This document shows positions 17,001 through 36,670 of a stretch of 64,000 nucleotides of DNA, piece after piece. Position 1 is the first letter of the stretch. Every line of letters starts with the position of its first letter. The notes beneath the pieces were generated by a model. That model did no database searches, was not told where the DNA came from, and was given only the letters and a program-made list of their open reading frames with translations. This DNA is from a virus (taxonomy: Duplodnaviria > Caudoviricetes): the IMG/VR virus record IMGVR_UViG_2767802067_000002, positions 1-64,000 of that record. One strand, written 5' to 3'. Both the position numbers and the translations under genes were made by a program.

Positions 17001-18319
17001 GCCGCCGGGGCCAGCGCAGCCACCAGGCTCGCAACGCCCTGCGCGGCGCCGGCGGCCGCGATGCCGACCGCGCCGAACCGCAGCAGCCCGGCCAGCGCGG
17101 TGCCCGCCCGGGAGGCGATGCCACTCAGCCCCGCCAGCGCCCGGGAGAACCGGTCGCGGTCGACGTCCGTGTTCACCTGGACGTCCGGGGCGTTGTGCTC
17201 CCGTACCCGCCGGTCGAAGCCGGACATGTCCGGGACGACCCGGATCGACACCTCTTCGTCGGCGACGGCCGCGCGGACGCGGTCCATGAAGCCGGACATG
17301 TCCGGCGCCACCGGCAGGTTGATGCTGTCCAGCCCCCGCAGGCCGCCGAGCAGCGCCGCATCGAACCGGCTCAGGTCCGGAACGACGCGGATCGAGATGT
17401 CGTCGCCGGCGAGCGCGGCCCGCACCCGCGTGTCGAAGCCGGTCAGGTCCGGCGCGACCCGGATGTCGATGCTGTCGATCGACCGCAGGCCGCTGAGCAG
17501 CGCGGCGTCGAACCGGGCCAGGTCCGGGACGACGTTGACCGTGGCGTCCGGGAGGCCGGTCAGTCCGGCGCGCAGCGAGGCGTCGAAGCCCGACAGGTCC
17601 GGCGCGACGTTGACCTGCGCGTCCGGCAAGCCGCTGAGCCCGGCGCGCAACGCGGCGTCGAAGCCCGACAGGTCCGGCGCGACGTTGACCGTGGCGTCCG
17701 GCAAGCCGCTGAGCCCGGCGCGCAGCGAGGCGTCGAAGCCCGACAAGTCCGGCGCGACGTTGACCTGCGCGTCGGCCAGGCGGCCGATCCCTGCCCGGAG
17801 CTCGGCGTCGAACCCGTCGACGTCCGGGATGACCGAGACAACGGCGTCCCGGAGGGAGCGCAGGCCCCGCTGGAGGGCCGTCTCGAAGCCGTCCAGGTCC
17901 GGGACGGTGTGGACCTCGAACTGGTCTCCGTTGGAGACCGCCCGCAGTAGCTCGGCGTCGAACCGGTCGACGTCCGGGACCGCTCGGACCCGAATCTCGT
18001 CGCCGGTGACCAGCGCCCGCCGCAGCGCCGTGTCGAACCGGTCGACGTCCGGCACCACCGGGATGGAGACGGCCGCCAGCGTCCTGGTGCTGCGCTCGAT
18101 CGCCGCCGCGAAGCTCTCGACGTCGGGGACGATCGGGACCGAGATCGCGGCCCGCAGGCCGCGCTCGATGTTGCTGCGGATCGCGGCACCGATGCCGCGG
18201 GTGCTGCGGTCGAGGGCTCGCTGGATCCGCTGCCCGAGGCTTCGGGCGTCGGCGACGGCCTCGGAGTCGTCCAGGACGATCCGGACGACGCCGACTCCGA
18301 AGTCCTCTTCGGTGGCCAC
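14096..18319 (-). CDS. Tape measure protein
   Basis: About 1400 aa Ala/Leu/Gly-rich amphipathic repeats; FANGGIV...GEAGPEVIIPL. Confidence 0.93.
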   Translation of the reverse strand: MATEEDFGVGVVRIVLDDSEAVADARSLGQRIQRALDRSTRGIGAAIRSNIERGLRAAISVPIVPDVESFAAAIERSTRTLAAVSIPVVPDVDRFDTALRRALVTGDEIRVRAVPDVDRFDAELLRAVSNGDQFEVHTVPDLDGFETALQRGLRSLRDAVVSVIPDVDGFDAELRAGIGRLADAQVNVAPDLSGFDASLRAGLSGLPDATVNVAPDLSGFDAALRAGLSGLPDAQVNVAPDLSGFDASLRAGLTGLPDATVNVVPDLARFDAALLSGLRSIDSIDIRVAPDLTGFDTRVRAALAGDDISIRVVPDLSRFDAALLGGLRGLDSINLPVAPDMSGFMDRVRAAVADEEVSIRVVPDMSGFDRRVREHNAPDVQVNTDVDRDRFSRALAGLSGIASRAGTALAGLLRFGAVGIAAAGAAQGVASLVAALAPAAGIIAAAPAAIIGFQAALGTLKLAVLGVSDALSAALTGDTKAFEEAIKGLAPAAQQAVTAVRSLAPELKAVQQAVQQSFFAQFAGEIGGAIKNLLPLQSGLQGIATEFGKAAQEGLKFAASQQALSSLQGILQGTRDAVGGLQGAIQPVVSGLLNVASVVAQAFGSELGSGINGLATRFGDFLNRIASGGQAVAWVDGALNVFGQLGGILQNVGGILSSVFAAANSSGGGLLGNIQKITASFAEFAKSASGQQALSNVFGTIAQIAAQLGPIISALVAQLGGIAPALGPIFTSLGPALVSLVNSLGPALAAIAPALATIGGALATGLAAIGPSLGPVGVAIAAILTALAPLLPLLGQVVAAVATALAPALQLLVGLFAPIISALSGALLPILPLVAQAFAQLVTALQPLATGIGQAVAQVIAALAPVLTSVAQLLVRVVAAVTPLITALVGALLPVLPPIIEAFNALVQALLPVLPPIASLVEALAPLLVMVVQLLAPVLQVAAAFVGWVAIKAAVPYIQLVVSELTFLVNGITSVVQFITALPGQVASAFSSLSSSAGSALDSTVAFFQALPGRIVAGLATLGGLLGEFFTGVGATISTAVSTAIDAVVAFFVALPGRIVAGLAALPGLLVDAFVNAMAALGIALLTALAAVIFLFYNLPIKIADALASLAITLVTLFVDAFNATVTAIGNFITATIAFFTALPGQIVAAATSLGVFLLSVFTSAFNSATAATTSFINSTIAFFVALPGRIVSAVASLAGLLSGLFTSAGNSAINAISSFINSAVSFFSGLPGRIGSALSSIGSQIASAFSSAVSSATSAVNGLISSIVSLFSTLPGKIINALGDIGSRIVSKIKSGLPAAVRAVLPFANGGIVTSPVVGLVGEAGPEVIIPLSRPQRAVELAAQSGLLSLLARQGAIGPPRRAGGSSGGPAPVSNVTHNWHINSRVDDSAVLAQHLYGRVARAAGV
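17200..18140 (-). repeat. About 13 repeats of ~24-25 aa (VxPDLSGFDAxLR) in the tape measure N-terminus; central units are near-perfect 75-bp repeats
   Basis: Protein translation and DNA repeats at 17521-17770. Confidence 0.85.
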
Positions 18320-18345
18320 TGGCAACCTCGCGTGAGCGATCGGTT

Positions 18346-18378
18346 GCCCGGCCTAGCACCAGCGGCGATCCCAGATTA
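18346..18378 (-). promoter_or_regulatory. Late promoter and leader motif (tape measure)
   Basis: TAATCT-N5-CGCCGCTGGTGCTAGGCCGGGC on minus strand. Confidence 0.7.
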
Positions 18379-18710
18379 GCGGGTGCGCATCCCGGCGACC
18401 CGTGCGTCCTCCGCCGCCATCTCCTGCATTAGCTGCTGGGCGCGGTTCGCGGTCATGCCCGAGCCTGGGACGCGCACGCGCTGACCGGGTGGCGGGCGGA
18501 AGCCGTGCGGCGGCTGCCAGAGCTTCGCCCGGTTGCGCTTGCGCTGCGCGTCGTCCTCGGCGCCCTGGTCCATCGACACCTCGGCCGCCGACAACATGAC
18601 CCGCAGCGGCCAGGCGTGGACGTCTACCCCCTGGAGGGCAAGGCCGCCCTCCCACGAGTCCCACGACTCGGCGATGCTTGCGCAGAGCCGCTGGACAACC
18701 CAGTAGGGCG
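18376..18710 (-). CDS. Tail assembly chaperone, frameshifted C-terminal extension
   Basis: Overlapping -1 frame PYWVVQRL... with no clear RBS or start; lies between chaperone and tape measure. Confidence 0.6.
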
Positions 18711-19145
18711 CGCCCCGCCTCCGTACAGCTCGACCGCCCACTCCAGCAGCTCGACCAGGACGCGGTCCGGCAGGCGCAGCGACTCGTCCTTCACCGTCGC
18801 GCCTTCCTGCTCGGCCGCCGCCTTCGCCGCCAGGCCCGGCTCGCTGTACGAGCCGACGGCGACCCCGCCGGCGACGACGTCCCACCGGGCGAACACCGCG
18901 GCGGACTCCGGCAGCATCAGGCTCGCCAGGAACACCCGCAGCGAGCCGACGACCTGGCGGAGCTTCGCCGGCTCGACGTTGCCCAGGTCGTTCAGGTCGA
19001 CGCCGAGCTCGGCCTGCGAGTTCCGCAGCTTCTCGTAGGCGTCCAGGAACTCGTCGCCGTAGACCTCGGGCTCGAAGCTGAGCTTGTGCGGCCCGATCTC
19101 GGCGACATGGGGGACGGTGTTCAGGGCAAAGGTGCGCGTGGCCAC
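18624..19145 (-). CDS. Tail assembly chaperone
   Basis: LLEWAVELYGGGARPT...SS; position; GAGGAG RBS. Confidence 0.75.
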   Translation of the reverse strand: MATRTFALNTVPHVAEIGPHKLSFEPEVYGDEFLDAYEKLRNSQAELGVDLNDLGNVEPAKLRQVVGSLRVFLASLMLPESAAVFARWDVVAGGVAVGSYSEPGLAAKAAAEQEGATVKDESLRLPDRVLVELLEWAVELYGGGARPTGLSSGSAQASPSRGTRGRAALPSRG

Positions 19146-19177
19146 GGGTGGCTCCTCATCTCCCGCGTGCATCGCCT

Positions 19178-19213
19178 CGGCCCACAACCAGCAGACGTGC
19201 ACCGGAAAGGGTA
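19178..19213 (-). promoter_or_regulatory. Late promoter and leader motif variant (tail chaperone)
   Basis: TACCCT...CTGCTGGTTGTGGGCCG. Confidence 0.55.
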
Positions 19214-19294
19214 GCGGTCGGACGCCCGACCCCCGGGCTTCGCTCCTGGCCTCAGCTGTTGCCCCGTCGCCCCGGCCGCCACTACCGTCCAGGC

Positions 19295-19567
19295 GTGATC
19301 GGAAAACTGGCGGGCGCGGTCCTCGGGTTGGTGGCCGCCGGGGTGGCGGCGCAGCGGCGCACGGCAGCCCGCAGGCCGGCGCCCACGCCCCGCATTCGGA
19401 CCTGGCACTACTGGCGCTGCGAGTGCGGCGGGCACTCTCGCGGCGCGTTCATCACCCGGGATGAGGCGTGGTGGGCCGGCGAGCGGCACAGGCTGCGCAA
19501 GGAAGCCGGCCATCCGTTCGCCGAGCTCTACACCACCGAAGAGGAGTGGAACTACCCCACCGATTGA
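19295..19567 (+). CDS. Small membrane-anchored protein with CxC...H motif, opposite strand within tail region
   Basis: N-terminal hydrophobic helix; WRCECG...H. Confidence 0.5.
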   Translation: MIGKLAGAVLGLVAAGVAAQRRTAARRPAPTPRIRTWHYWRCECGGHSRGAFITRDEAWWAGERHRLRKEAGHPFAELYTTEEEWNYPTD

Positions 19568-19583
19568 GGGGTGGCCCAGCAGC

Positions 19584-19961
19584 TCAGGCGCCCTCGCGCA
19601 GTGCCCGCCCCAGGAAGTTGTTCGCCCGGGTGCCCGGGTGGTTGACCCGGGCCGCGAAGACGACGTGGCCGGACACCTCGAACCGCAACGCCTTCGCCCG
19701 CCGGGGCCGGATGACGTGCGGCCTGGTCCCGTTCAGGACGAACAGCGTCGCCGGGTGGTCGCACGACACGACGCCTTGCAGGCCGCGGGGCGTTTCGTCT
19801 ACCCGCGTCTCGATGTAGGCCGGCATCGTCCCCGGCGCCTCGCGGCGGGCGATGGCCGCGACCCGCTCGGTGCGCGCCCGCAGGCGCTTCTCCGCCAGGC
19901 CGCCGCGCAGCCGCAGGAACCGGGCGATCCGGCCCTGATCGATCGTCACCTCAACGCTCAC
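19584..19961 (-). CDS. Tail completion or neck protein (HK97 gp10-like)
   Basis: GTRPHVIRPRRAKALRF...VNHPGT..NNFL. Confidence 0.75.
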   Translation of the reverse strand: MSVEVTIDQGRIARFLRLRGGLAEKRLRARTERVAAIARREAPGTMPAYIETRVDETPRGLQGVVSCDHPATLFVLNGTRPHVIRPRRAKALRFEVSGHVVFAARVNHPGTRANNFLGRALREGA

Positions 19962-20551
19962 GGCCCCTCCGTCTCCGCCGGGCACGCGCAGTCGACCAGC
20001 GCCACCGTCACCCGCTGCTCCAGGCCGACGCAGCCACCCTGCGGGCCCACCGTCTTCTGCGTACCCACGGAGAACCTGCGCGCACGCGGCAGGCCCAGCG
20101 TGTCCGGCAGGCAGCACAGCATCGCGTTGTAGACCGTGGCCTCGTCGACGTGGAGGACCTTCGCCGCCGCCGCCAGCTCATCGCACGACGGCGGACAGCC
20201 CTCCTCCGTGACCGACGGGGCGCAGCGCAGCAGGGTGACGGCCAGCTCGACGGCGGTGATCTGCGGCGGGACGCAGCCGCGCACGCCCAGCACGATCGAG
20301 GTCTCGGTCGGGAAGTCCTCCAGCGTCGACCGGTACAGCCGCACCACGCTGACCGACAGCTGCCCGCCGGTGTCGCCCGTGCACGGGTCCTCGCAGCCGT
20401 CCCACGCCACCTGGCCCGGCACGACGCACGTCCGGCAGTCGGGGCAGCCAGGCTGTCCTTCCACCTCGGCGGAGGTGGCCTCCAGGGCCGCGCAGACGCA
20501 GCCGAGGACGGCTTCCGTCAGCTCGTGGATCGCGAGCACGGGCAGAGCCAC
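19958..20551 (-). CDS. Tail terminator-like protein, Cys-rich
   Basis: Position; LLRC...GPQGGCVG motif. Confidence 0.65.
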   Translation of the reverse strand: MALPVLAIHELTEAVLGCVCAALEATSAEVEGQPGCPDCRTCVVPGQVAWDGCEDPCTGDTGGQLSVSVVRLYRSTLEDFPTETSIVLGVRGCVPPQITAVELAVTLLRCAPSVTEEGCPPSCDELAAAAKVLHVDEATVYNAMLCCLPDTLGLPRARRFSVGTQKTVGPQGGCVGLEQRVTVALVDCACPAETEGP

Positions 20552-20587
20552 CAGGGGACTCCTTCGGTCGGGCCGGGAACACCCCGG

Positions 20588-21391
20588 TCAGGTCGTCAGC
20601 CGGGGCCGCTTGAAGTCCGGCGAGTAGACGCGGCTCGGGGACGTGAGCCGGTACGGGTTCACCGCCGCGAGCCACATGTCCACGACGGCCAGGCCGGTCC
20701 GGCCCTCGCTGTAGATCAGCGTCGGGTCGGCCTTCTCGATCTCGACGCCCTGCCGGACCATCCGCGTGACGTTCTGGTTCGCGCGGCAGCCGCACGAGCC
20801 CTTCCCGCCGCAGCCCTTGAGCAGGTGGCAGGTCAGCTCGCTGACGGCGGCGATCGCAGACTCGTCCAGCGGCAGCCCCACCCGGTAGGTGACGCACAGC
20901 GTCCCCTCGGTGCCGCACGGGGCGGCGAGGTCGTAGCAGCCGTCCCAGCACGCCCCGTCGGTGCGCACCAGCAGGCTGCCGTTGTCGACGCGGTACGCCT
21001 CCGGCTCCAGCGCCACCGTGCCGTCCTGCACCGAGACGATGTCGTACACCGGCCCGGGCAGGTAGAGCTCGCACAGCTCGCCGCACGAGCAGTCCGTGGA
21101 GCACCCGCAGACCGAGGCGTTCCGCCACGCCCCGTCCGTGCCGATGTACGGGATCCACGGGGTGCCCACGATGCCCCGGCTCCAGCCGACGGTCAGCGGG
21201 TAGTCGTCCAGGCAGGAACGGCGGCACGGCCGGACCGTGTACGGGCACGACGGCCCCCACCGGCGGCCGGACAGCCGGAACAGGATCTGCGAGGCGACTG
21301 CCGTCCACCGGTCGATGTCGGCCTGCTCGACACCCTCGGTGTCGCAGCACAGCTTCACCGGCCACGGTGAGCACACGTCAGGCTGGAGCAC
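20588..21391 (-). CDS. Head-tail adaptor
   Basis: LFRLSGRRW, YRVDNG..LVRTDG, RQGV, TGL..VDMWL..VNP. Confidence 0.75.
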   Translation of the reverse strand: MLQPDVCSPWPVKLCCDTEGVEQADIDRWTAVASQILFRLSGRRWGPSCPYTVRPCRRSCLDDYPLTVGWSRGIVGTPWIPYIGTDGAWRNASVCGCSTDCSCGELCELYLPGPVYDIVSVQDGTVALEPEAYRVDNGSLLVRTDGACWDGCYDLAAPCGTEGTLCVTYRVGLPLDESAIAAVSELTCHLLKGCGGKGSCGCRANQNVTRMVRQGVEIEKADPTLIYSEGRTGLAVVDMWLAAVNPYRLTSPSRVYSPDFKRPRLTT

Positions 21392-21394
21392 CCG

Positions 21395-22072
21395 TCAGAC
21401 CTCCAGTTCGTACGGGCTGGGCGTCGGGAACGCCTCCCGGAGGAACGCCCCCACGTACCCGTGCCGGAAGGCGTCCGTGCCGACCGACAGGACCGGCGCG
21501 TCCAGCGGGAACCTGGGCCCGCGGTACTCGACGACGGCCTTCCCGGCCGGCTCCCCTCCGAGGCCGGCCAGGTTGCCGTACAGGGTGCGCACGTACGGGC
21601 GGGCCAGGCCCTGCGCCGCGTCGAGGGCGGCCAGGGCGCCCGCCTTGTCGACCAGGAGCAGCCCGTTCTCGTACACAACCGGGTCCGGGTGGCCGAGCTC
21701 GGCGAGGCGCGCGACGGTCTCGGCCTGGTCCTCGACGTCGCGGGCCGGGCCGCCGTGCATCACCGGCACGTCCCCGCCCAGGGGCGTCAGGGTGACCGTG
21801 CCCGGCCCGGCGAAGAGGAACGGGTCCGAGATTGCCGAGTCCTCGACGGCGGCCCGCAGCACCCCCGCGGTGCCGGCGTCGGGGTCCGCGTCGAGGAAGA
21901 CGGCGTTGGCCAGCCACCCCGGCCACCGGCCGGCCACGAAGAGGCTGTCGTGCGGGAGGTGGGCCGCCCACGAGCGCGCGGCGTACCGCAGCAGCTCGGG
22001 GGCGGCCCCGACCCGGACCGGGACGACGAGGTCCGGACGGCGCGGAGCCGCCGCTGTCTTGGCCCGGGCCAC
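21395..22072 (-). CDS. Stealth/glycosyltransferase-like protein (degenerate)
   Basis: ELLRYAARSW...LPHD.LFVAG..P.WL resembles ELRYSLRS; ends FPTPSPYE. Confidence 0.5.
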   Translation of the reverse strand: MARAKTAAAPRRPDLVVPVRVGAAPELLRYAARSWAAHLPHDSLFVAGRWPGWLANAVFLDADPDAGTAGVLRAAVEDSAISDPFLFAGPGTVTLTPLGGDVPVMHGGPARDVEDQAETVARLAELGHPDPVVYENGLLLVDKAGALAALDAAQGLARPYVRTLYGNLAGLGGEPAGKAVVEYRGPRFPLDAPVLSVGTDAFRHGYVGAFLREAFPTPSPYELEV

Positions 22073-22773
22073 TACGGCACCGGGGTAAGGCAGACGCCGC
22101 CGGTGACGGCCACGTAGTCACAGACCGCGGCCGGCGGGGCGATCGTCGTCAGGAAGGTACGCCGGTGGCAGGTCGAGCCGAGCGGCGTCAGCATCGTGCC
22201 CGCGGTGTTCGCCGCGTCCTTGGCCTGCACGTTGTAGGGGCCGACGCCCCACTTCCCGCCCGCCCGGGTCGCACCGGTCAGGGTGAGGTCGACCGCCTCG
22301 CTGCCGAGCTCGATGTCCCCGAGCAGGCCGTTGGTCACCCACGGCAGCAGGAAGTACATCCACTGCCCGGTCGCGCCCACCGCGCACTCGTCGCTGATGA
22401 CCTCGGTCCAAATCTCCAGCGCGAAACCGGAGTTGCACTGGACCGAGCAGTCGTCGTACCCGATCGGCTTGCCGTCGTAGCCGAAGTACACCGGGTTCCC
22501 GGTGGCGATGTCGATGAACTCCGGCGCCAGCGAGAAGAAGTGCAACTCGAGGTCGTAGCCGTTGAACGTGGGGCATCCGCGCTTGAAGCCGCACTGGCGG
22601 CCGTTCGCCGCCTTGTACTCGATGTCCGTGCCGTCCGTGGTGTTGACGTTCATCGCGAGCGTCGAGAAGCAGTCGAACACGTACCCGGAGTCGTTGGCGC
22701 AGACAGGACGGCCGCAGCCGTCAACCTTCGTGAGGCGGATGGTGCTCGCTTCCGCGGTCAAGGGGCAACCCAT
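22072..22773 (-). CDS. Major tail protein
   Basis: IRLTKVDGCGRP, GFALEIWT, YFLLPWV, WGVGPYNV as in actinophage cluster-B-like tail tubes. Confidence 0.85.
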   Translation of the reverse strand: MGCPLTAEASTIRLTKVDGCGRPVCANDSGYVFDCFSTLAMNVNTTDGTDIEYKAANGRQCGFKRGCPTFNGYDLELHFFSLAPEFIDIATGNPVYFGYDGKPIGYDDCSVQCNSGFALEIWTEVISDECAVGATGQWMYFLLPWVTNGLLGDIELGSEAVDLTLTGATRAGGKWGVGPYNVQAKDAANTAGTMLTPLGSTCHRRTFLTTIAPPAAVCDYVAVTGGVCLTPVP

Positions 22774-22800
22774 GGGGCCCTCCAACGGTGAGTGTTGGTA

Positions 22801-22838
22801 GGCCCGGCCCAGAACCAGCAGCGCTACCACCCAGCATA
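22801..22838 (-). promoter_or_regulatory. Late promoter and leader motif (major tail)
   Basis: TATGCT-N7-AGCGCTGCTGGTTCTGGGCCGGGCC. Confidence 0.75.
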
Positions 22839-22890
22839 GGGGGCGCAGCGGGCCCGGAGGGGGCAGGAACGGCCGCAGGGCGGTGGACGT

Positions 22891-22930
22891 GCTGAGAGGG
22901 CGTCAGGGCGGCCCCCGACGCCCTCTCAGC
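22891..22930 (-). terminator. Terminator hairpin
   Basis: GCTGAGAGGGCGTC...GACGCCCTCTCAGC. Confidence 0.7.
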
Positions 22931-22940
22931 AGCCCTTCGG

Positions 22941-23129
22941 CTACTCCTTCGCGGGAAGGCCCGCGAGGACGCCGGCCAGGTTCACCACCGGCGGCTCCAG
23001 CCCGGCCGCCGCCTGCTGCTCCCGGTACTCCTCCTCGCTGATCTCCCTCCAGCCGTCCGGCACCGGCAGGACGCCGCCGGTGCGCATCAGGGATGTGCCG
23101 CTCTCGGAGACGTAGAACTTGGCCGCCAT
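22941..23129 (-). CDS. Small protein, fibre-chaperone-like
   Basis: GWREISEEEY; AAGAGG RBS; follows the repeat protein. Confidence 0.6.
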   Translation of the reverse strand: MAAKFYVSESGTSLMRTGGVLPVPDGWREISEEEYREQQAAAGLEPPVVNLAGVLAGLPAKE

Positions 23130-23139
23130 CGGGGCCTCC

Positions 23140-25776
23140 TTACGGGGTGTTCGTGGTGTAGATGATGAAGGCGTCCGAGGTCCACTGGTTGATCCGCGTG
23201 ATCTGACCGGACGTCACGTTGACGGCCGGGTAGATCGCGATCGAGGACGGCGTACCCGCCGGGATGTTCCAGTTCGTGACGTAGACGTTGCCGTTGCGGC
23301 GGATGCGCCGGCCGTTCGGTGCGCTGCTCAGCTCGCCCCACAGCGGCCGGACGGACACGTTGCCGTCCTGGACGACGACGAGCCCGACGTCGAAGACGCT
23401 GCCGGTGGTGTACTCGATGTCGAAGTTCCCGGTGTTGCCGACGACGTAGCCGTACGTCCGGCAGTCGTTCCCGACGAAGTTCGCCGGGAGGTTGAACTGC
23501 TGGTTCGCGCCCGCGTCGACCAGCCTCCAGCCGCCGGACGGGCCGATCGGGGTGAGGAACCCGCCGGTGAAGTGGTCCACGTAGATGTGGTCCTCGGCGG
23601 AGTAGTGCTCCGGCGGGGTCCACAGCTTGCCCGTGGTCGGGTCGCACTTGAGGGTCGAGTGCGTCGGCGCGTCGCAGGTCCAGGTAGCCGACCACGCCTC
23701 CTGGCCGGCCTCCGGGACGACGACGAGCGGGTCCGCCGCCGTGCCGACACCGTCAAGGCCGCAACCGGTCACCAGCGCCGCCGCAGCCGGGGAGAAGAGA
23801 CCGCCGTCCGTGCCGATCTTCGTCTGGTTCCCCGCGTCGGTGCTGATCTGGGCCTTGATGACGCCGGTGGCCGGGTCGTAGTCGATGCCGGGGCCCTCGC
23901 TGATGCACGTCCTGACCTGCGCGCACTCCAGGTAGAGCCCGTTCGCCCCCGCCTTGATGAGGTTGGTGCCGCCGCCCGGCGGGGCCGGGTCGAGCTTCAC
24001 CACGCTGCTCACCACGTACGGCGACGCCGCGGTGCCGGCGCCCGTCACCGTGTTGTCGACCGTCGGGGTGTCCCCGGCCGTGACGACGGTGCTCCCACCG
24101 CCGCCGCTGGCCGGGGTGTACAGGCCGCCGTCGGTGCCGATCACGGTCGTGTTCCCCGCGTCGGTGCTGATCTGGGCCTTGATGACGCCCGTCGCCGGGT
24201 CGTAGTCGATGCCCGGGCCCTCGCTGATGCACGTCCTGACCTGCGCGCACTCCAGGTAGAGCCCGTCACTGTTGAGCTTGATCAGGTTCGTGCCGCCGCC
24301 CGGCGGGGTCGGGTCGAGCCTGACGTCCGACTTGATCACGTACGGGTCGCCGGCCGCCCCGGTGCCGGTGATCGCCATGTCCACCGAGGAGGTGTCGAGG
24401 ATCTGCACGATCGTCCCGCCGCCGCCGCCACCGACCGGGGCCCACAGGCCGCCGTCCGTGCCGAAGGTCAGCGAGTTCCCGCCGTCCGCCGACAGCTGCG
24501 CCTTGATGACGCCGGTGGCCGGGTCGTAGTCGATGCCGGGGCCTTCGCTGATGCACGTCCTGACCTGCGCGCACTCCAGGTAGAGGCCGTTCGCCCCCGC
24601 CTTGATGAGGTTGGTGCCGCCGCCGGGAGGGGTGGGGTCGAGCTTCACCACGCTGCTCAGCACGTACGGCGACGCCGCCGTGCCGGTGCCGGTGAGGGTG
24701 TGGTCGACCGTGCTGGTGTCCTGCACCGTGAGCTGCCCGGAAGACGAGGTGTAGATCCCGCCGTCCGGGCCGATGCTGGTGACGTTCCCGGCCTGGGTGC
24801 TGATCTGGGCCTTGATGACGCCGGTGGCCGGGTCGTAGTCGATGCCCGGGCCCTCGCTGATGCACGTCCTGACCTGCGCGCACTCCAGGTAGAGCCCGTT
24901 CGCACCGGTCTTGATGAGGTTGGTGCCGCCGCCCGGCGGGGCCGGCTCCAGCTTCACGACGCTGCTCACCACGTACGGCGACGCCGCCGTGCCGGTGCCG
25001 GTGAGGGTCATGTCGACCGTGCTCGTGTCCTGCACCGTCACCTGGCCGGACACGGGGGTGAGGATCCCGCCGTCCGGGCCGATGCTCGTCGTGTTCCCGG
25101 GCTGGGTGCTGATCTGCGCCTTGATGACGCCGGTGACCGGGTCGTAGTCGATGCCCGGGCCCTCGCTCAGGCACGTCCTGACCTGCGCGCACTCCAGGTA
25201 GAGGCCGGTCGCCGAGGTCTGGATCAGGTTCGTCCCGCCGCCGGGCGGGGTCGGGTTGAGCTTCACCGTGCTGCTCAGCACGTACGGGTTCGCCGCGGTA
25301 CCGGTGCCGGTCAGGGTGTGGTCGACCGTGGAGGTGTCGACCACGGAGAGCTGCCCGGAGGACGCGGTGTAGATCCCACCGTCTCCGCCGATCGTCGTCA
25401 CGTTGCCGGGCAGGCCGCTGATCTGAGCGGAGATCACACCGGTTGCGGGGTTGTAGTCGATCCCCGGGCCCTCGGAGATGCACGTCCTGACCTGCGCACA
25501 CTCCAGGTACAGGCCCTCGGCGTTCGACTTGATCAGGTTCGTCCCGCCGCCGGGCGGGGTCGAGTCCAGCTTCACCGCGCTGCTGATGACGTACGGCGAG
25601 CCGGCCGACCCGTTCCCGCTGATCGTCATGTCCACCGTGTCGGTGTCCGTGACCTGGACGATCGTCTGGTCCGCGCTGATCACGTACGGCGAACCCGCCG
25701 ACCCGTTCCCGGTGATCGTGACGCGGCTACCGGCCTGGAGGACGCAAGAGCACGTAGTGCGGCAGCAGGTCGCCAT
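23140..25776 (-). CDS. Virion fibre or decoration protein with six ~103-108-aa tandem repeats
   Basis: GLYLECAQVRTC(I/L)SEGPGIDY occurs six times; starts MATCCRTTCSC. Confidence 0.85.
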   Translation of the reverse strand: MATCCRTTCSCVLQAGSRVTITGNGSAGSPYVISADQTIVQVTDTDTVDMTISGNGSAGSPYVISSAVKLDSTPPGGGTNLIKSNAEGLYLECAQVRTCISEGPGIDYNPATGVISAQISGLPGNVTTIGGDGGIYTASSGQLSVVDTSTVDHTLTGTGTAANPYVLSSTVKLNPTPPGGGTNLIQTSATGLYLECAQVRTCLSEGPGIDYDPVTGVIKAQISTQPGNTTSIGPDGGILTPVSGQVTVQDTSTVDMTLTGTGTAASPYVVSSVVKLEPAPPGGGTNLIKTGANGLYLECAQVRTCISEGPGIDYDPATGVIKAQISTQAGNVTSIGPDGGIYTSSSGQLTVQDTSTVDHTLTGTGTAASPYVLSSVVKLDPTPPGGGTNLIKAGANGLYLECAQVRTCISEGPGIDYDPATGVIKAQLSADGGNSLTFGTDGGLWAPVGGGGGGTIVQILDTSSVDMAITGTGAAGDPYVIKSDVRLDPTPPGGGTNLIKLNSDGLYLECAQVRTCISEGPGIDYDPATGVIKAQISTDAGNTTVIGTDGGLYTPASGGGGSTVVTAGDTPTVDNTVTGAGTAASPYVVSSVVKLDPAPPGGGTNLIKAGANGLYLECAQVRTCISEGPGIDYDPATGVIKAQISTDAGNQTKIGTDGGLFSPAAAALVTGCGLDGVGTAADPLVVVPEAGQEAWSATWTCDAPTHSTLKCDPTTGKLWTPPEHYSAEDHIYVDHFTGGFLTPIGPSGGWRLVDAGANQQFNLPANFVGNDCRTYGYVVGNTGNFDIEYTTGSVFDVGLVVVQDGNVSVRPLWGELSSAPNGRRIRRNGNVYVTNWNIPAGTPSSIAIYPAVNVTSGQITRINQWTSDAFIIYTTNTP

Positions 25777-25817
25777 GGGGCGCTCCCCTCACGCCTCTAC
25801 GGCGTGCGCAGAAAGGA

Positions 25818-25854
25818 GGCCCGGCCTAGCACCAGCAGCGCTGCGCCCAGTCTA
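25818..25854 (-). promoter_or_regulatory. Late promoter and leader motif (repeat protein)
   Basis: TAGACT-N6-AGCGCTGCTGGTGCTAGGCCGGGCC. Confidence 0.75.
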
Positions 25855-25904
25855 GCGACGGCCCGCCCGGCGGCCCGGAGGAGTAGGCCGGGCCGCCCGG
25901 CCGC

Positions 25905-26444: not shown

Positions 26445-26453
26445 GATGGCCCC

Positions 26454-28331: not shown

Positions 28332-28340
28332 CGCTCTCCC

Positions 28341-29441
28341 TTAGGCGTTGAGGAGTTCGAGACGGAACCGGATCGGGGGCTGCACCGACACGTTGTTGAA
28401 GTGCAGGGCGATCGTGCTCCCCCCGTTCATCCGGACCGTCCCCGACGAGGCGGACTGCGGCGGCCCGGACACGTACGTCAGGCGGGCGCGGTGTCCGCCC
28501 CCGAAGACGTTCGAGAGGCGCTGTTCGCCGATGTCCATGCCGGTCAGGTTGGTGGGCCAGGTGATCGCGGGGGACCCGGAGGCCGTGAAGGAGATGAAGG
28601 CGGCGCCGGAGGGCTGACCGTTCCCGTTGTCGCCGAAGCTCATCTCCACCGCGCTCACGCCGTTCCAGGTGAAGGACGGCGTGCCGGTGGTCGGGTCGTA
28701 GCAGGCCCCGGTGAGCGTCCACCCGGTGGCGGAGGACGGGGTGGGCACGACGTTGCACATGTTCTCCGCCGTGCCGGACGGGTCGTCCCCGAAGGCGCTG
28801 GAGTTCATGGTGAGCGTGGGCGTGATGAACGGCGTGGGCTGGTCGCAGGACACCACGTCCGCGTTCGCCACGAGGTTGCCGTACTGGTCGTACCACTCCA
28901 GCGTGGTCCCCCGCCGACATGCGAACACCGGCTCGAAGGTGAGGAGTTGGAGTTCCCGCCACAGCGGGGCGATCGCCCCGCCGATCTGCTTGTCCAGGGT
29001 GCGCAGGACCACCCGGTCCACCCCGGTCAGCTCCAGCCCGAGAGGGAGCGTGTGCGTGGTGGGACCCGCGCCGTTCACCCCCTGGAACGTCGCCGTGGTC
29101 AGCAGCGTCGCCCCGGCGTAGAACTCGGCGGTGAAGCGGTTCAGCCCGTCGGAGTCGGTCAGCAGGCTGCCGCCCTGGTTCCACAGCCTGAGGCCCCGCA
29201 CCCGGTTGTGCGGGGTGCTGAGGGTGTACTCCACCCGCAGCGTCGTGCTCGGCGTGTTCCCGACCGTCGTGGTGTACCCCGAGTTGACGGTCGAGGTCGT
29301 GTCGCCGTCAGCCGTCAGGGCCAGGTTCGTCTGGGTCCATCCGGCCTGTGACGCCGTCTCGGCGACCCCGGTGAACTGGACGCCGACCAGCGCGCACGCA
29401 GAGGCCAACCCCACGGGGCAGCAGTTGCAGGGGACCGCCAT
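28341..29441 (-). CDS. Putative virion protein with discoidin/CBM-like domain
   Basis: ADGDTTS...VRGLRLWN...RELQL; starts MAVPCNCC. Confidence 0.65.
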   Translation of the reverse strand: MAVPCNCCPVGLASACALVGVQFTGVAETASQAGWTQTNLALTADGDTTSTVNSGYTTTVGNTPSTTLRVEYTLSTPHNRVRGLRLWNQGGSLLTDSDGLNRFTAEFYAGATLLTTATFQGVNGAGPTTHTLPLGLELTGVDRVVLRTLDKQIGGAIAPLWRELQLLTFEPVFACRRGTTLEWYDQYGNLVANADVVSCDQPTPFITPTLTMNSSAFGDDPSGTAENMCNVVPTPSSATGWTLTGACYDPTTGTPSFTWNGVSAVEMSFGDNGNGQPSGAAFISFTASGSPAITWPTNLTGMDIGEQRLSNVFGGGHRARLTYVSGPPQSASSGTVRMNGGSTIALHFNNVSVQPPIRFRLELLNA

Positions 29442-29459
29442 GGGCTCACCTCTCTTAGA

Positions 29460-29495
29460 CCGGGCGGGACGGCCCTCGTGGGTCGTCCCGCCCGG
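29460..29495 (-). terminator. Intergenic hairpin
   Basis: CCGGGCGGGACGGCCC-TCGT-GGGTCGTCCCGCCCGG. Confidence 0.65.
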
Positions 29496-29504
29496 CGCCG
29501 GCTC

Positions 29505-32500: not shown

Positions 32501-33485
32501 GGGCACCGTGGACGACGCGGATGATGAAGTTCGCCGAGGCCGGAGCGGTGAAGGTCTGCCAGATGGTCGAGCGGCCACCGGGCGGCGGCCCGTCCGAAGT
32601 GATCTCCTGGACCGGGGTACCGCGAGGCGTCGGGGTCGTGCTCTGGCCATCCGCGACGTCCCGGCCCCAGATCTCGAAGGTGCGCCCGACGTCGTTGGTC
32701 TCCCACCCGGAGTTCGCGACGTTGGTGCAGTTCGCCCGGCCGGACGGCGGGAAGCCGGGGAACGGCCCGGGGTCGTCCTGCCGGGCCAGGAGGTGGAAGC
32801 CGTAATTGCCCTGCGAAACAGGCGGGTTGAGCGGCGGCGTCTCGTTGTACGCCGGGTTGATGATCATGTCCTGGCCGCCGTTGTAGACCAGTTCGATCAG
32901 GTCCGGCGGGGACTGGTCCAGGCGCAGGCACTCGATGTGGATCTGCATCGGCGCGGCGGTACCGCAGATGGTCTGTCCGGCGTTCGGGTTCGTGATGGTG
33001 ACCGTGGCCGATGCCGGGACGCGCCCCTCGATGAAGGCGGTCAGGTCTTGCCGGAACTGCTCTCCGTCCGGGTCGGCCACGTCCCAGACGATGTTCGCGG
33101 CGTTCGTGACCTGGTCGACCTGCAAGCTCTGGACCGCGAACCCCGGGTTGATCGGCAGCGTGATGTCGTACTGCCGGCCGGGGTGGTCGACGGGCCCCGT
33201 CGCCGTAGTCGTGCGGTGGAACGCCACGGGCTCCAGGCAGCCGGTCTCGCCAGGGCACGGCATGAGGGTGCCCTGCGCCACGTACGCGATGCCCGTCGCC
33301 GGGTCCACGAAGGTTGGCGGGCCCATCGGGGCGCCGGCAGCGTCGTACTCCCACACCGCCATCGCGGTACCGGCAATGGTCCCGTCCGGCAGGGTGTCGC
33401 AGAGGATCGTCTGCTCGACGTCGACACCGGCCGCCCCCGTACCCCCTCCCTCGCACGGCTGCGGCTGGAACGGCGGAGTCGTCAC
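29505..33485 (-). CDS. Large Cys-repeat virion protein
   Basis: About seven LCD..G..F.R.Y...TL.G..(F/Y).P.G.VG.C modules with inserted domains. Confidence 0.8.
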   Translation of the reverse strand: MTTPPFQPQPCEGGGTGAAGVDVEQTILCDTLPDGTIAGTAMAVWEYDAAGAPMGPPTFVDPATGIAYVAQGTLMPCPGETGCLEPVAFHRTTTATGPVDHPGRQYDITLPINPGFAVQSLQVDQVTNAANIVWDVADPDGEQFRQDLTAFIEGRVPASATVTITNPNAGQTICGTAAPMQIHIECLRLDQSPPDLIELVYNGGQDMIINPAYNETPPLNPPVSQGNYGFHLLARQDDPGPFPGFPPSGRANCTNVANSGWETNDVGRTFEIWGRDVADGQSTTPTPRGTPVQEITSDGPPPGGRSTIWQTFTAPASANFIIRVVHGARDNGEQHRITLDNGDTDDAQNGDLIDDVSNPPSVTNSGGPNPWTQFSQTIPLTGGSTYTLALSTNNPVGGARGGLFTDMRAYIDRPDQRATATTDDDTCVVTVDETTTVCEDELWSPICETGTIHSWQNAETGAILTNSAFWGQAPAPTPGPCPAAAAGGDGGSVAANLVHTYPVCATIGGVRTNLQRVVITDASGGVLADSFVGPDGGPVAAPSSYTIGSCTDTAFMGDQVLCDDSGPFLRKYVQAVSDVGQPQVKAHSDFTLDGAAYTPVGTVGTCAGADVLGPICFSDPATSLQRQGFLTRDADGTAHVYTLSGVEVVPFPVILICAESAFFEEVLCDQGAGGHQFLRRYVGSPIAGTNDALWDFELDGVTVYAPVGPVQLCQPDAADREAICYTLTSTGTALHAGWARHQDSIPATPQTPNGIGFFDALGNALDPTADGFTVVPCASGGTDAEVVQLCDFTGDPPVIAATAVGQAPNPPGNAPIPAVADVNAWVTGASPSLTVPTWGTNPPTSRFFNVQYALVPPGTAPCGPPTTVHIRHTFSVRNTGQGSPSSGTVGISLRNGAATVDSQTIGPFPSGTTVAVTLEADVPYADLAAGAITVHHSYLVWQPTTHPEYLLTSYSMVVTDAAPNPACISDESTPFLRHFVYGVDGSIAGHYDTTFDGSLYTVTGTVGVCQPASPGDRVDAESQILCDSNGTRFLRTYAYDAAGVVSSFTDRTLAGAAFAPVGAVGTCGTGTGVDSESFILCDSAATPNRFIRTYTYGTTGAVTGFTDTTLAGAAFVPTGAVGVCAQTVQADTDFVEEVLCDQNGTAFIRLFRFNSLTGALVSTTNTTLAGAAFAPVGTVGICSDCCPQVLADDLCTNTGSGRATAIRNTNGTVTLVDSVTGAAVANANIVACVNDDTVRTLTAQARTLTNGTPWTPGGDVAGTLTSLTVTGVSGLWDLVDANGTAVTGLPAGLTLTWSAQDDNTLTGPTSITPQAGATVIANWTQR

Positions 33486-33524
33486 GGCATCCTCCTGGAG
33501 GAGTTGGGCGGGGTCGTCGGCACG

Positions 33525-34019
33525 TCAGCCTCCGTGCACGCGGGTGCGGTGCATCGCCAGGCCGCGGTCGCCGCTGAACGACTTCTGGCAGTCCGCGCAG
33601 ACGAACTCGGCAGCGTCGTCCTGGTCCTCGGTGGCGGGCTGCTCCTCGACCGGGACGTCCTCCAGCGGCGCGAAGTCCGGCCCGTCGAGCGGGACCGCGT
33701 CGGGCTCGTGCGCCTCCGGGGGAAGCTCGGGCAGCGCCTCGCCGGGTCCGGACTCCTGCTCGGCGCCCGGCGCCGTCTCGGGCGGCGCGCTGCCCGGCTC
33801 CGTCTCGGCCGGGGCCGCCGCGTCCTGCCGCGGCACGTACGGCTGCCCGTCGACCAGGGCGCCGAGCAGCAGCTCCTCGGGCACGTCGGCGAACAGTGCG
33901 GCGGGTACGCCGAACGACGACGGGCCGACGGTGCGGAGCTTCGGCCGCTGGGCGACCGCCCAGGCCGCGAACGGCTGCCGGAGCTCGGCGGCGGGCTGGA
34001 TGGACAGGTTGCTGCTCAC
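33525..34019 (-). CDS. Acidic protein with C-terminal C2H2 zinc finger
   Basis: CADC...F...GLAMHRTRVH. Confidence 0.75.
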   Translation of the reverse strand: MSSNLSIQPAAELRQPFAAWAVAQRPKLRTVGPSSFGVPAALFADVPEELLLGALVDGQPYVPRQDAAAPAETEPGSAPPETAPGAEQESGPGEALPELPPEAHEPDAVPLDGPDFAPLEDVPVEEQPATEDQDDAAEFVCADCQKSFSGDRGLAMHRTRVHGG

Positions 34020-34029
34020 AGGTGGCTCC

Positions 34030-34854
34030 TCAGCACAGGGTGACGCGGACCGCCGCGGCGCGGCAGCAGGCGATCTCGACGACGAAGGTCTGCTGGGCCT
34101 GGACCCGGCGGTCGTTGGTGCGCAGGTTGACGCTCTCCGCGTCCTTGAGCGGTACGACCTCGACTTCGTCCCGGCGGACCCGGACCGGGCTGGTGGCGTA
34201 CAGCCACGCCTCGCCCGGGTCCGCGGTGGTGCAGTCGGGCGGGCCGACGTTGACGCTGTAGCCGGCGCCGAGGACGACGCAGGACCCGGCGAGGGTGCGG
34301 GGCCCGCCGGTGTCGACGCCGATGATGACGGAGCGCTCGGACAGCAGCGCGCCGGCGCCGACCGGGATGTGCAGCACGCCGGCGCCGCCGTACTCGGTGC
34401 CGAGCCAGGTCTCCAGGATCCCGATGCCCTGAGCGACCGTCACCGCCCCGGCCGCCGGGGTCTGGTCCTCGGCCATCGGGCACAGCACGTCGCGCAGGAA
34501 CCACTCCTCCAGGGCGCGCTGGGCGCCCATCCGAAGCGACTCCTTCACGTGCGCGACGGCTTCCTCGTACGGGTAGCCGATCGTCGTGCACTCAGTGCCG
34601 GACACGATCGTCACCGGCGCGGCCGAGCAGGTCCCCGGCTTGTCGTAGACGACGTCGCCGGGCTCGGGCTCCCCTTCGGGCGGGCACCAGGTGGTGTCGT
34701 GCGCGTCGGCGCAGCTGAGGGGCCGCCAGTCGGTGCCCAGCATCTCGTGCGGGTCGGCGGAGTCGATGATCTCGGTGCAGCCACCGAGGAGGCCGTAGGG
34801 CAGCGGCTCCCCGGGGGCGGCGGTCACGTACTTGCGTAGCCCGGCGTCGGGCAT
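34030..34854 (-). CDS. Capsid protein 2 (candidate pentamer protein, Rosebush/cluster-B-like)
   Basis: Directly after the major capsid gene; PYGLL, GVLHIP, VVLGAGY. Confidence 0.65.
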   Translation of the reverse strand: MPDAGLRKYVTAAPGEPLPYGLLGGCTEIIDSADPHEMLGTDWRPLSCADAHDTTWCPPEGEPEPGDVVYDKPGTCSAAPVTIVSGTECTTIGYPYEEAVAHVKESLRMGAQRALEEWFLRDVLCPMAEDQTPAAGAVTVAQGIGILETWLGTEYGGAGVLHIPVGAGALLSERSVIIGVDTGGPRTLAGSCVVLGAGYSVNVGPPDCTTADPGEAWLYATSPVRVRRDEVEVVPLKDAESVNLRTNDRRVQAQQTFVVEIACCRAAAVRVTLC

Positions 34855-34938
34855 TGCGGGCCTCCATCGTCGTCAGGACGGTGCGCCCGGTCCCGGCACG
34901 GAGCAGAGCCGGGCCCGGGCGCACCGCGTGCGGGGCCG

Positions 34939-36576
34939 TCAGGCGACGGGGCAGGACAGGGTCTTCTGCGCACCGGTCGAGCCGTCGGCGCAGACCGGCA
35001 CGGTGACGAGGCGGGTGTCGACCGACCTGTCCACGAGAGCGACGCACTCCTCGCTGAAGGTCGCCGTGTAGTCGTTCTTGCTGAACTTCACGGAGTCGTG
35101 GACCACGCCGAGGTTGATCTCCGCGCCACGTCCAGCCTGGAGAGAACCAGCGGGGTAGATCAGGAAGCTGACCTCGTCGGGCCACGCGGTGGCCGGCGTC
35201 GCGCCGCCGATCTCACCCGGCTGCGCCGGGGTCAGACCGCGCGCCCACTGGATCCGGGTGCCGAGCGGCGTGTACAGGTCCTGGACCATGCCGATGTCGA
35301 CCTGGTCCAGCCCGACGCCGTTCCGGCGCGCCAGGTCGGCCAACATCATGTTCCTGCTCCACCACGGGAACACGACCTCGAGCGCGGTTCCTTCGCAGAG
35401 CGAGTGACGCTCGATCATGTCCGCCGCGGTGAGGGCGACGGCGCCGTGCAGCGCCGAGACGGTGCCCATCGTCGCGGTCAGTGCGACCGAGGTCGCGGTG
35501 GCCACGGCCTGCTCGAACAGCTCCTGCTTGATGCGGATCTCGTGCGCGACCATCTGGTTGCGCAGGTACCAGGCGACGAGCTCCGGGAAGTGCCGCTGCG
35601 TCAGGATGCCCGCTTCCAGGCAGATCCCGACCGCCTCGCAGCGGACTTCCAGCGGCTGCGGGCACGGGATCTTGAAGCACGGCTTCGTGGCGCCCGCGAT
35701 GTCGTCGGCCTCGGTGTGCACCCAGGTCATCGCGGCGACGTCCAGCGTCGGCGGCTTGTAGTAGCGGATACCGCCCCTGGCGAGCTGCGTCTCCGGCAGG
35801 TCCCACAGCATGTCGGGGCAGGCCACGTCGGCGATGTCGTAGACCATCTCCGACACCGCGCACCAGCCGCCGGACGCGACCAAGTCCCCCTTCGGCAGGC
35901 GCCGCTGGTTGGAGGCGGTGAGGGTCACCGAGGTGCCCTCCGGGATGGAGCCGGCGTCGGTGACGATCAGCTCGTCCGGGTACGGGTGCGAGTAGCTGGC
36001 GACCTGGCTGCTGCCGCCGTTGATGGTCTTGAGGGCGTTCGCGCGGGCGATGACACCTGCGGTCAGGTCGTCGAAGTTGATGGTGCTGCCCGGCTTGTGG
36101 CCGGGGACGTCGACCGACGCGGTGATGCGGGTCGCCGGCTTGTTCTCCTCGGGGAGGACGCGGCGCTGGCCCGCGCGGACCGCACTGAGGTTCAGACGGG
36201 GCCTCGCCGGCGGGGTCGCGGCCGCGGTCGCCGCCGCTTCCGGCTCCGGCTCGGGCTCGTCGGACGCGGTCGCCTCGGTTTCCGTCTCGGCCTCCGGCTC
36301 GACCTGGGCGGCGGGCTCCTCAGCCTGGCCGCGCACCTGGGCGGCGAGAGCATCGATCTCGGCGGCGGCCTGCTGCGCCGCGTCCAGCCGGGACGCCTGC
36401 TCGGCGCGGATGTCGTTGACGGCCGCCGCGATGGCGCGCATCTCGGCCAGGTCGTCCTGGCTGATGCTGGTGCTGTTGGAGCGGGAGTCGAACGCGGCGA
36501 CCGCCGCGTCCAGGAGTGCGCCGAGCTCGTCGTCGGTCAGCGCGCTGTAGCTCTCGGGGAGCTCGAACGGGTCCAT
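34939..36576 (-). CDS. Major capsid (hexamer) protein with N-terminal scaffold-like domain
   Basis: LVASGGWCAVSE..YD, DLPE...RGG, LGVVHDS...NDY..FSEE. Confidence 0.9.
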   Translation of the reverse strand: MDPFELPESYSALTDDELGALLDAAVAAFDSRSNSTSISQDDLAEMRAIAAAVNDIRAEQASRLDAAQQAAAEIDALAAQVRGQAEEPAAQVEPEAETETEATASDEPEPEPEAAATAAATPPARPRLNLSAVRAGQRRVLPEENKPATRITASVDVPGHKPGSTINFDDLTAGVIARANALKTINGGSSQVASYSHPYPDELIVTDAGSIPEGTSVTLTASNQRRLPKGDLVASGGWCAVSEMVYDIADVACPDMLWDLPETQLARGGIRYYKPPTLDVAAMTWVHTEADDIAGATKPCFKIPCPQPLEVRCEAVGICLEAGILTQRHFPELVAWYLRNQMVAHEIRIKQELFEQAVATATSVALTATMGTVSALHGAVALTAADMIERHSLCEGTALEVVFPWWSRNMMLADLARRNGVGLDQVDIGMVQDLYTPLGTRIQWARGLTPAQPGEIGGATPATAWPDEVSFLIYPAGSLQAGRGAEINLGVVHDSVKFSKNDYTATFSEECVALVDRSVDTRLVTVPVCADGSTGAQKTLSCPVA

Positions 36577-36606
36577 CGGCCGTGTCTCCAGATCAGTCGG
36601 AGAGAT

Positions 36607-36644
36607 GGCCCGGCCCAAAACCAGCAGCGCTCCCGGAAATAGTA
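36607..36644 (-). promoter_or_regulatory. Late promoter and leader motif (major capsid)
   Basis: TACTAT-N7-AGCGCTGCTGGTTTTGGGCCGGGCC. Confidence 0.75.
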
Positions 36645-36670
36645 GCCGCCCCCGGGTTCCGGGGGCGGCT
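36644..36670 (-). terminator. Hairpin abutting the capsid promoter
   Basis: AGCCGCCCCCGG-GTT-CCGGGGGCGGCT. Confidence 0.65.

Follow-up and report, generated by a model that had tools for sequence, protein, structure and literature searches.

A conserved leader hairpin before the virion genes of actinomycete temperate phages: a candidate element of late-gene control

Very little is known of how Streptomyces phages and phage-plasmids control their late genes, and one stretch of prophage DNA raises the question of how it might be organised: a short motif recurs, always on the coding strand, a few tens of nucleotides (nt) in front of five of its structural genes. The stretch, called the window below, comprises positions 1 to 64,000 of IMG/VR record IMGVR_UViG_2767802067_000002 (window 1-64000 = G000:C11:182309-246308, on a contig of 318,697 bp). 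An earlier note on this DNA had proposed that the motif belongs to a messenger RNA (mRNA) leader which is OFF by default, its ribosome binding site (RBS) hidden in a stem, and which a phage protein or small RNA (sRNA) opens. Comparison of the window with its relatives points to an apparently undescribed control element of actinomycete phage late genes, built around an RNA hairpin (P1) that is joined, before some gene classes, by a second helix (P2) covering the RBS.

Within the window the consensus of the earlier note was matched with no mismatches at five minus-strand places (36611-36627, 25822-25838, 22805-22821, 19178-19194 and 18349-18365), confirming the five copies claimed. All have the form GCYGCTGGT(T/G)NT(G/A)GGCCG(G/A)GC and lie, on the same strand as the gene, before the capsid, fibre-like, major tail, tail-chaperone and tape-measure genes; the loop of the hairpin reads UUNUG in three copies and UGCUA in two. 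Dinucleotide-preserving shuffles of the window gave a mean of 0.66 matches with up to two mismatches, and the seven observed were reached in none of 100 shuffles. The exact form is found nowhere else in the whole 8.78-Mb genome; in the window, a covariance model of P1 picks out these five copies alone. The five upstream hexamers that the earlier note had listed were likewise all found on reading the sequence (Table 1).

The element extends well beyond this prophage. The relatives found through the capsid region, three circular Streptomyces plasmids of about 100 kb and the temperate phage TurkishDelight, all carry the motif, a pattern scan of IMG/VR returned at least 118 stretches with it, and after removal of duplicates at least about 250 distinct copies were available from relatives (prophages, 100-kb plasmids and TurkishDelight). 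Four complete genomes hold 9, 6, 7 and 3 copies in the forward direction and none in reverse, all confined to the stretch that runs from the capsid gene to the last of the tail and lysis genes, and the genes downstream fall into orthologous classes: fibre-like, chaperone, major tail, tape measure, three minor-tail classes, capsid and lysin-like. Among 50,697 deposited phage genomes the canonical motif occurs in TurkishDelight only, and a scan of species-representative genomes found multi-copy loci in Streptomyces, Kitasatospora, Embleya and Nonomuraea. The assumption in the earlier note that the window comes from a phage-plasmid did not hold: it is part of a large integrated prophage, because homology to the early genes of TurkishDelight runs on to about C11:290,000, and it is the close relatives that are circular 100-kb plasmids.

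Outlying forms accompany this distribution. The Woodruffvirus phages TP1604 and Mischief19 carry the variant CUGGCGKUAGGCCG before their capsid and major tail genes. This diverged hairpin has the loop CGKUA and the closing stem GCU...GGU, and a shorter form, GCUGCGCGCUAGGCCGG, precedes the tape-measure gene; the sites noted are L133:11380-11440, 14575-14635 and 1860-1950 and L132:11745-11800 and 340-400. A canonical Nonomuraea copy with an upstream TAGACT (L191:5816-5842) stands before a gene resembling the N-terminus of a tyrosine recombinase, not a virion protein. Single matches in Tsukamurella, Kribbella, Actinomadura, Blastococcus and proteobacteria were set aside as chance, lying inside membrane-protein genes and having neither closing stem nor hexamer.

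When the copies are aligned on the motif, 21 positions are informative, GCYG CUGGUUNUGGGCCGGGC, numbered -4 to +16; 20 of the 21 are conserved and position 6 alone is free. A TAnnnT hexamer lies 9-19 nt upstream of the motif in 203 of 249 copies (82%), at a distance of 10-18 nt in about 80% of copies, and its fifth base, which the search left unspecified, is C in 92% of the copies that bear it (TAnnCT). No conserved -35-like element was found upstream of the motif across the family copies, and no consensus sigma-70 -35/-10 pair in the region; the minimal promoter part of the cassette would be a -10-only promoter of the form TAnnCT, and if the hexamer is indeed a -10 element, transcripts would start 0-8 nt before the motif. 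Further upstream, a G+C-rich hairpin ends -1 to +2 nt from the hexamer in 132 of the 203 hexamer-bearing copies. These terminator-like hairpins have no U tracts, and the one in the capsid cassette gives weak Rfam matches to the 3'-end (terminator) hairpins of sRNA models. On the other side, the start codon follows P1 at 27.4 +/- 3.0 nt in 207 of 229 evaluable copies, the remaining distances belonging mostly to first members of tandem pairs or to failures of start-codon calling. Failures of the latter kind were seen in minor-tail leaders of L123 (minus strand, near the copy at strand index 5436), L045 and L103, which have ATC where their orthologues have ATG and in which translation probably starts at an upstream in-frame GTG. 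Tandem hairpin copies, 23-45 nt apart, were observed in major-tail and tape-measure leaders (L012:18510-18603 and L012:22901-22982; also in L014, L127, L120, L089 and L135), and in the major-tail leaders the second copy regularly has a GCUG...GAGC closing stem with a U-A pair.

Is the motif read as DNA or as RNA? Judged by its pattern of substitution, it is a sense-strand RNA hairpin, P1, closed by pairing of positions -4, -3 and -2 with +16, +15 and +14. The closing combinations are GCC/GGC (163 copies), GCU/GGC (38), GCU/AGC (13), GUC/GAC (4), GCC/GGU (4) and ACC/GGU (3), with rarer double variants also present, and all three pairs covary, G-C changing to A-U and C-G to U-A via U-G. An A at +14 is found exclusively with U at -2 (18 of 18 copies; Fisher p = 4e-13) and an A at +15 exclusively with U at -3 (6 of 6; p = 3e-9), A-U is seen at -4:+16, and the U-A variant at -2:+14 recurs in at least six gene classes. 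The covariation score was reached by none of 500 shuffles and beats those of all slid registers. Single changes in the closing stem comprise about 50 wobble-compatible copies (U-G or G-U), two A/C mismatches and no C/A. Tolerance of T/G but not of C/A would be produced neither by a palindromic DNA site nor by an RNA from the opposite strand, and argues for pairing of the motif in the sense-strand RNA; as different stem variants co-exist in one genome, the pattern is not one of co-evolution with protein specificity. The earlier note had suggested both that the motif folds a hairpin of its own and that it acts as RNA on the coding strand, with a plain DNA site as the alternative; the covariation check among homologues, with its G-U-tolerant closing stem, supports it on both counts.

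The interior of P1 is far more constant. Its inner stem (G2-C12 and G3-C11, with neighbouring U-G or C-G pairs and a bulge of one or two bases) is invariant and, because it never varies, gives covariation nothing to act upon; RNAalifold favours the register with U1-G13. The loop is nearly invariant, UUNUG or the variants UGYUA and CGKUA. Positions 5 and 8 change jointly from U..G to G..A (7 of 7 copies, p = 9e-14), which by sequence resembles a swap between two loop types, and position 4 passes from U to C in the Woodruffvirus variants. An outward extension of P1 by three pairs was rejected, positions -7 to -5 and +17 to +19 being unpaired in 59-70% of copies.

Does a second helix cover the RBS? 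The four stems written out in the earlier note were recovered as minimum-free-energy structures, the chaperone copy being without one: in the predicted folds of the four window leaders, the Shine-Dalgarno sequence and the last bases ahead of the start codon are taken up by the GGGC or GGCC tail of the motif together with a C-rich stretch. Across relatives, with 515 intergenic leaders from the same loci as controls, the motif leaders fold at -19.9 kcal/mol against -17.5, their Shine-Dalgarno sequence is paired with a probability of 0.70 against 0.56, and the spacer between it and the start codon with 0.76 against 0.56 (p = 5e-17). A helix of at least 6 bp between a leader's own 5' arm and its own pre-start region is formed by 39% of leaders, compared with 15% of mismatched leader pairs. 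The tail of P1 pairs downstream with a probability of 0.99 in tape-measure leaders and of 0.86-0.89 in those of the major-tail, capsid, minor-tail B and minor-tail C classes. Among 27 orthologous tape-measure leaders a nine-pair P2 reaches P1 positions 11-16. Its pairing stands at 95%, and two of its pairs show compensatory changes; at motif +14 the change, from G-C to A-U, occurs where -2 is U, so that both helices remain possible. All ten distinct capsid leaders of relatives form an equivalent P2 with different sequences.

The chaperone class behaves otherwise. Its Shine-Dalgarno sequence is mostly free (paired probability 0.34), and the window leader (19143-19195, minus strand) is less stable than all 200 of its dinucleotide shuffles (z = +1.89); unlike its tape-measure neighbour, this leader class seems to be under selection to stay unstructured. 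Of the shared stem that the earlier note drew between the 3' end of the motif and the RBS, what stands is its presence, with different sequences and some compensation, in the capsid, major-tail, tape-measure and two minor-tail classes. Occlusion of the RBS as a general property of the element does not stand, given the open chaperone leaders and the rare use of the tail in fibre and minor-tail-A leaders; in the folding models it is specific to some gene classes and not universal.

P1 and P2 compete for positions 11-16 and P2 is much the stronger, so P1 is expected only transiently, in transcription, or when something holds it. The occurrence of P1 without P2 (in the chaperone leaders), its tandem copies and its near-invariant loop and bulges lead us to regard P1 as a modular recognition element, with P2 apparently added before particular genes to adjust their output. 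The explanation we favour, at a little short of an even chance, is a leader hairpin that docks a factor and so gates late translation. The cassette would consist, in order, of the terminator-like hairpin, the -10-only promoter TAnnCT, P1 beginning 0-8 nt into the transcript and the start codon 27 +/- 3 nt on. P1 would dock one conserved trans-acting factor, of phage or host, which would act on late mRNAs after initiation, most likely at the step of translation initiation. The free RNA of the capsid, major-tail, tape-measure and some minor-tail leaders would rest with its RBS covered through P2, and the balance would be shifted towards the open RBS by binding of the factor, or by P1 forming during transcription, much as Com does on the mom leader of Mu. 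The transcription start, the existence of the factor and the direction of its effect are what we infer, just as the earlier note inferred its OFF-by-default leader opened in trans. That P1 is almost identical in phages with proteins of 50-70% identity would fit a host partner. The bolder form, in which P1 and P2 make a two-state switch throughout the genomes of a large actinomycete temperate phage family and one conserved factor frees the capsid and tail RBSs together, we hold to be doubtful.

Several observations weigh against this explanation. The folding z-scores of the window leaders, -0.4 to -1.2 with the chaperone leader at +1.9, are unexceptional for G+C-rich DNA; with single-leader scores so weak, the window stems are backed by comparison across relatives and not by energy, and energy alone was rejected as evidence for a stem, any 48-nt leader in these genomes reaching about -17 kcal/mol. 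When the spacer is shuffled, stability falls only a little, from -20.0 to -18.2 kcal/mol, P2 compensates for variant tails in some leaders only, and the P1 tail pairs downstream with a probability of only about 0.45 in fibre, chaperone and minor-tail-A leaders. As leaders of these three classes are mostly without a P2 that uses the tail, switching between P1 and P2 cannot be what P1 does in general. P1 is also weak as modelled: the median cost of imposing it is +6.7 kcal/mol relative to the free ensemble, and locking it in silico lifts the accessibility of the Shine-Dalgarno sequence only from 0.26 to 0.34; in these models a held P1 does not by itself open most RBSs. Covariation addresses only three of the roughly seven to eight pairs of P1, the first copies of tandem pairs lie far from any RBS, and the search among relatives identified no activating phage protein or sRNA.

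Of the rival explanations, the one that survives best, unlikely as we consider it, would make P1 a promoter-proximal RNA that modifies RNA polymerase for late read-through, either alone in the manner of put or with a protein in the manner of N and boxB, with P2 incidental or separate. In the predicted transcripts P1 does come right at the 5' terminus, where it would fold ahead of P2, but an antitermination site has no need of the fixed 27 +/- 3 nt between hairpin and start codon. Likewise, most cassettes have a terminator-like hairpin abutting the following promoter, through which late transcription would have to read, yet this hairpin has no U tract, and with a promoter to each unit read-through is not obviously required. 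The tandem copies that recur in major-tail and tape-measure leaders are expected if loading efficiency matters. The lambda nut sites combine a boxA with a boxB hairpin bearing a GNRA-like pentaloop, lie in early operons and are recognised by the N protein. P1 is like nut and the HK022 put sites in being a small, sense-strand, promoter-proximal hairpin with a conserved loop and a variable, covarying stem, repeated at several units; it differs in standing at late virion genes at a fixed 27 nt from their start codons, and in having no conserved boxA-like linear element beside it, no position outside -4 to +16 being conserved. No N-like gene was found either, the profile searches not including an N-type protein. 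Leaders of the RfaH/LoaP type go with a NusG paralogue encoded with the target operons, and the four complete carrier genomes contain no NusG-type paralogue (PF02357, E <= 1, with control genomes responding).

P1 might instead protect mRNA from RNase E or J as a 5'-terminal stabiliser, or be a nuclease processing signal whose cleavage removes the 5' arm of P2 and frees the RBS. A cut within or after P1 would indeed abolish P2, which uses positions 11-16, and P1 both begins 0-8 nt from the predicted 5' end and precedes the most abundantly needed virion proteins. A stabiliser, however, has no use for an invariant loop and bulges, whereas 20 of the 21 positions are conserved, and a tandem pair places its second copy away from the 5' terminus; we judge this explanation improbable.

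We think it very unlikely that the motif is a duplex DNA site downstream of the transcription start, whether an operator or stoperator of the prophage repressor or the site of a late activator. Reportedly, as described by Brown et al. in 1997, the stoperators of cluster A mycobacteriophages are asymmetric multi-copy sites in short intergenic gaps, and the present motif is similarly asymmetric, orientation-specific and repeated in short gaps; it differs in being limited to virion genes and in pairing as RNA, stoperators being DNA sites spread genome-wide. The motif lies inside the footprint of a polymerase at a -10-only promoter, and a WhiB-like regulator is the only non-structural protein common to all sampled carriers, both of which would suit a DNA site. 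Such a site would not, however, lead one to expect covariation that keeps complementarity within one genome holding several variants, the tolerance of T/G over C/A (about 50 copies against 2) that is the signature of sense-strand RNA pairing, or start-proximal sequences complementary to the tail of the motif.

That a phage-specific polymerase or sigma factor uses the motif itself as its promoter, with transcripts beginning at the GGGC tail, is barely credible: its roughly 20 contiguous conserved bp followed by G-rich sequence are superficially like a T7-type promoter, and tandem copies could be tandem promoters, but covariation shows the motif base-paired as RNA and hence transcribed, a conserved -10-like hexamer lies upstream, and the four complete genomes have no detectable sigma-70 region 2 and no annotated RNA polymerase. 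An upstream open reading frame, a transfer-RNA-like mimic and a sigma-54-like promoter within the motif were judged by eye and dropped, with no supporting feature.

Precedents for the element itself were sought in databases and the literature. Rfam 15 gave no match at any motif site with E <= 1 over 27 kb, and focused searches with E <= 10 returned only sub-threshold chance matches (at most 17 bits against cut-offs of at least 37 bits), in keeping with the earlier note, which did not recognise the motif as a described one. The searchable literature, queried by phage names, topic and motif strings, contained no description of it. The repeated motifs of the Gordonia phages Vardy and CaiB were considered and have different sequences.

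For a leader that docks a factor, the closest known logic is that of Com and mom in phage Mu, where the protein-binding site overlaps a stem that conceals a late gene's Shine-Dalgarno sequence and start, and the bound state opens the RBS. P1 resembles that arrangement, as far as it is known here from sequence, in being a conserved site 5' of, and overlapping, a hairpin that hides the Shine-Dalgarno sequence of a late gene, and the logic proposed is the same. A stem of this type adjoins the putative site in the tape-measure, major-tail, capsid and minor-tail B and C leaders and is weak or absent in those of the chaperone, fibre and minor-tail A classes. P1 differs in its 3-9 copies per genome before virion genes, against one mom leader, in that many copies have no inhibitory stem, and in that no Com-type zinc ribbon (PF10122) was found in five complete genomes at E <= 1.

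Other systems share single features with the cassette. The T4 late genes e, soc, 49 and I-TevI have a late promoter inside the hairpin that sequesters their RBS, and the likeness lies in late phage genes whose RBS-covering hairpins are tied to a late promoter; here, however, the hexamer lies upstream of P1 and of both arms of P2, so the predicted late transcript holds the whole hairpin and starting inside the stem is inapplicable. In the translational T-box leaders of Actinobacteria, sequestrator and anti-sequestrator helices exclude one another, and there too two exclusive helices decide access to the Shine-Dalgarno sequence, but P1 has only 21 nt, no T-box sequence or specifier architecture and no Rfam match. 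The SAS and ESAS elements of cluster K mycobacteriophages include the RBS and lie 3-8 bp from the start. SAS are mentioned in PMC12699233 and PMC11373665. With SAS and stoperators the element has in common that they are multi-copy, orientation-specific and placed in short gaps upstream of actinobacteriophage genes, with a function that is unknown or repressor-linked; the sequence of SAS is another one, and P1 ends 27 nt upstream of the start.

A partner was sought in the gene content of the carriers as well as by profile. The only non-structural protein common to the prophage itself, TurkishDelight, TP1604 and plasmid NZ_CP108279 is a small WhiB-like protein, the gene for which adjoins a RusA resolvase gene in TurkishDelight and NZ_CP108279. 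WhiB genes are common in actinophages, and because proteins of the family act through the principal sigma factor, it is a reasonable candidate activator of -10-only promoters; RNA binding is not known for WhiB proteins, and being no obvious RNA binder this one is a lead for the promoter part only. A gp112-like protein was discarded as shared factor, two carrier plasmids having none, and a search for a complementary antisense sRNA yielded only noise in this G+C-rich DNA.

In hundreds of prophages the hairpin labels the principal virion transcription units and so offers annotators a promoter and leader signature, and P1 is a short, mutable handle with clear compensatory mutants for the timing and balance of virion protein synthesis. 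If a factor that binds it specifically exists, the pair could make a portable expression switch for high-G+C actinomycetes; the two-state switch of P1 and P2, if true, would add both a class of phage riboregulator and an RNA-protein pair to those known.

Table 1. Genes, promoter-like hexamers and leader helices of the five window cassettes, with the WhiB-like protein of carriers (positions in the window unless a locus is given)
Feature	Position	Strand	Detail
Major head protein gene	34939-36576	-	Behind capsid-cassette motif
Terminator-like G+C-rich hairpin	36645..36669	-	Abuts capsid-cassette -10 hexamer; sequence read, weak Rfam matches
Capsid cassette -10-like hexamer	36639..36644	-	TACTAT; sequence read
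Capsid leader P1	36608..36628	-	Closing stem GCUG...GGGC; covariance-model score 36.8 bits
Capsid leader P2	36578..36610	-	GGCC/GGCC and UCUCC/GGAGA covering Shine-Dalgarno; ATG 36576-36574; folding
Gene of 878-residue protein (fibre-like)	23140-25776	-	Behind fibre-cassette motif; no family match
Fibre-like cassette -10-like hexamer	25849..25854	-	TAGACT; sequence read
P1, leader of 878-residue protein gene	25819..25839	-	Loop variant UGCUA; 28.8 bits
P2, leader of 878-residue protein gene	25778..25822	-	GGGCCUCCUUUC/GAGGGGAGCGCCC with inner hairpin; ATG 25776-25774; folding
Major tail protein gene	22072-22773	-	Behind major-tail motif
Major tail cassette -10-like hexamer	22833..22838	-	TATGCT; sequence read
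Major tail leader P1	22802..22822	-	36.9 bits
Major tail leader P2	22775..22805	-	GGGCCU.CCAAC/GUUGG.AGGGCCC; ATG 22773-22771; folding
Gene of protein in tail-chaperone position	18624-19145	-	Behind chaperone motif
Tail-chaperone cassette -10-like hexamer	19208..19213	-	TACCCT; sequence read
Chaperone leader P1 variant	19175..19195	-	UCUG...GAGG, closing pairs U-G, C-G, U-A; no P2; GTG 19145-19143
Tape measure gene	14096-18310	-	Behind tape-measure motif
Tape-measure cassette -10-like hexamer	18373..18378	-	TAATCT; sequence read
Tape-measure leader P1	18346..18366	-	Loop variant UGCUA; 31.7 bits
Tape-measure leader P2	18321..18348	-	GGCAACC/GGUUGCC around inner hairpin; GTG 18319-18317; folding
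Small WhiB-like protein	G000:C11:283185-283913 (outside window); L257:7397-8074; L013:19951-20328		

Two minor observations concern the proteins encoded around the cassettes. Between the gene for a MuF-protease fusion and the capsid cassette lies the gene for a conserved protein of about 60 residues starting MAC(G/S/A)C.KN (window 36706-36894, minus strand), found also at L009:19829-19999 and L133:11153-11338. Many proteins behind the hairpin have Cys-rich N-termini, among them MARCGCGGG, MASVCVC, MAxAGCGxH and MxCPLIANA.

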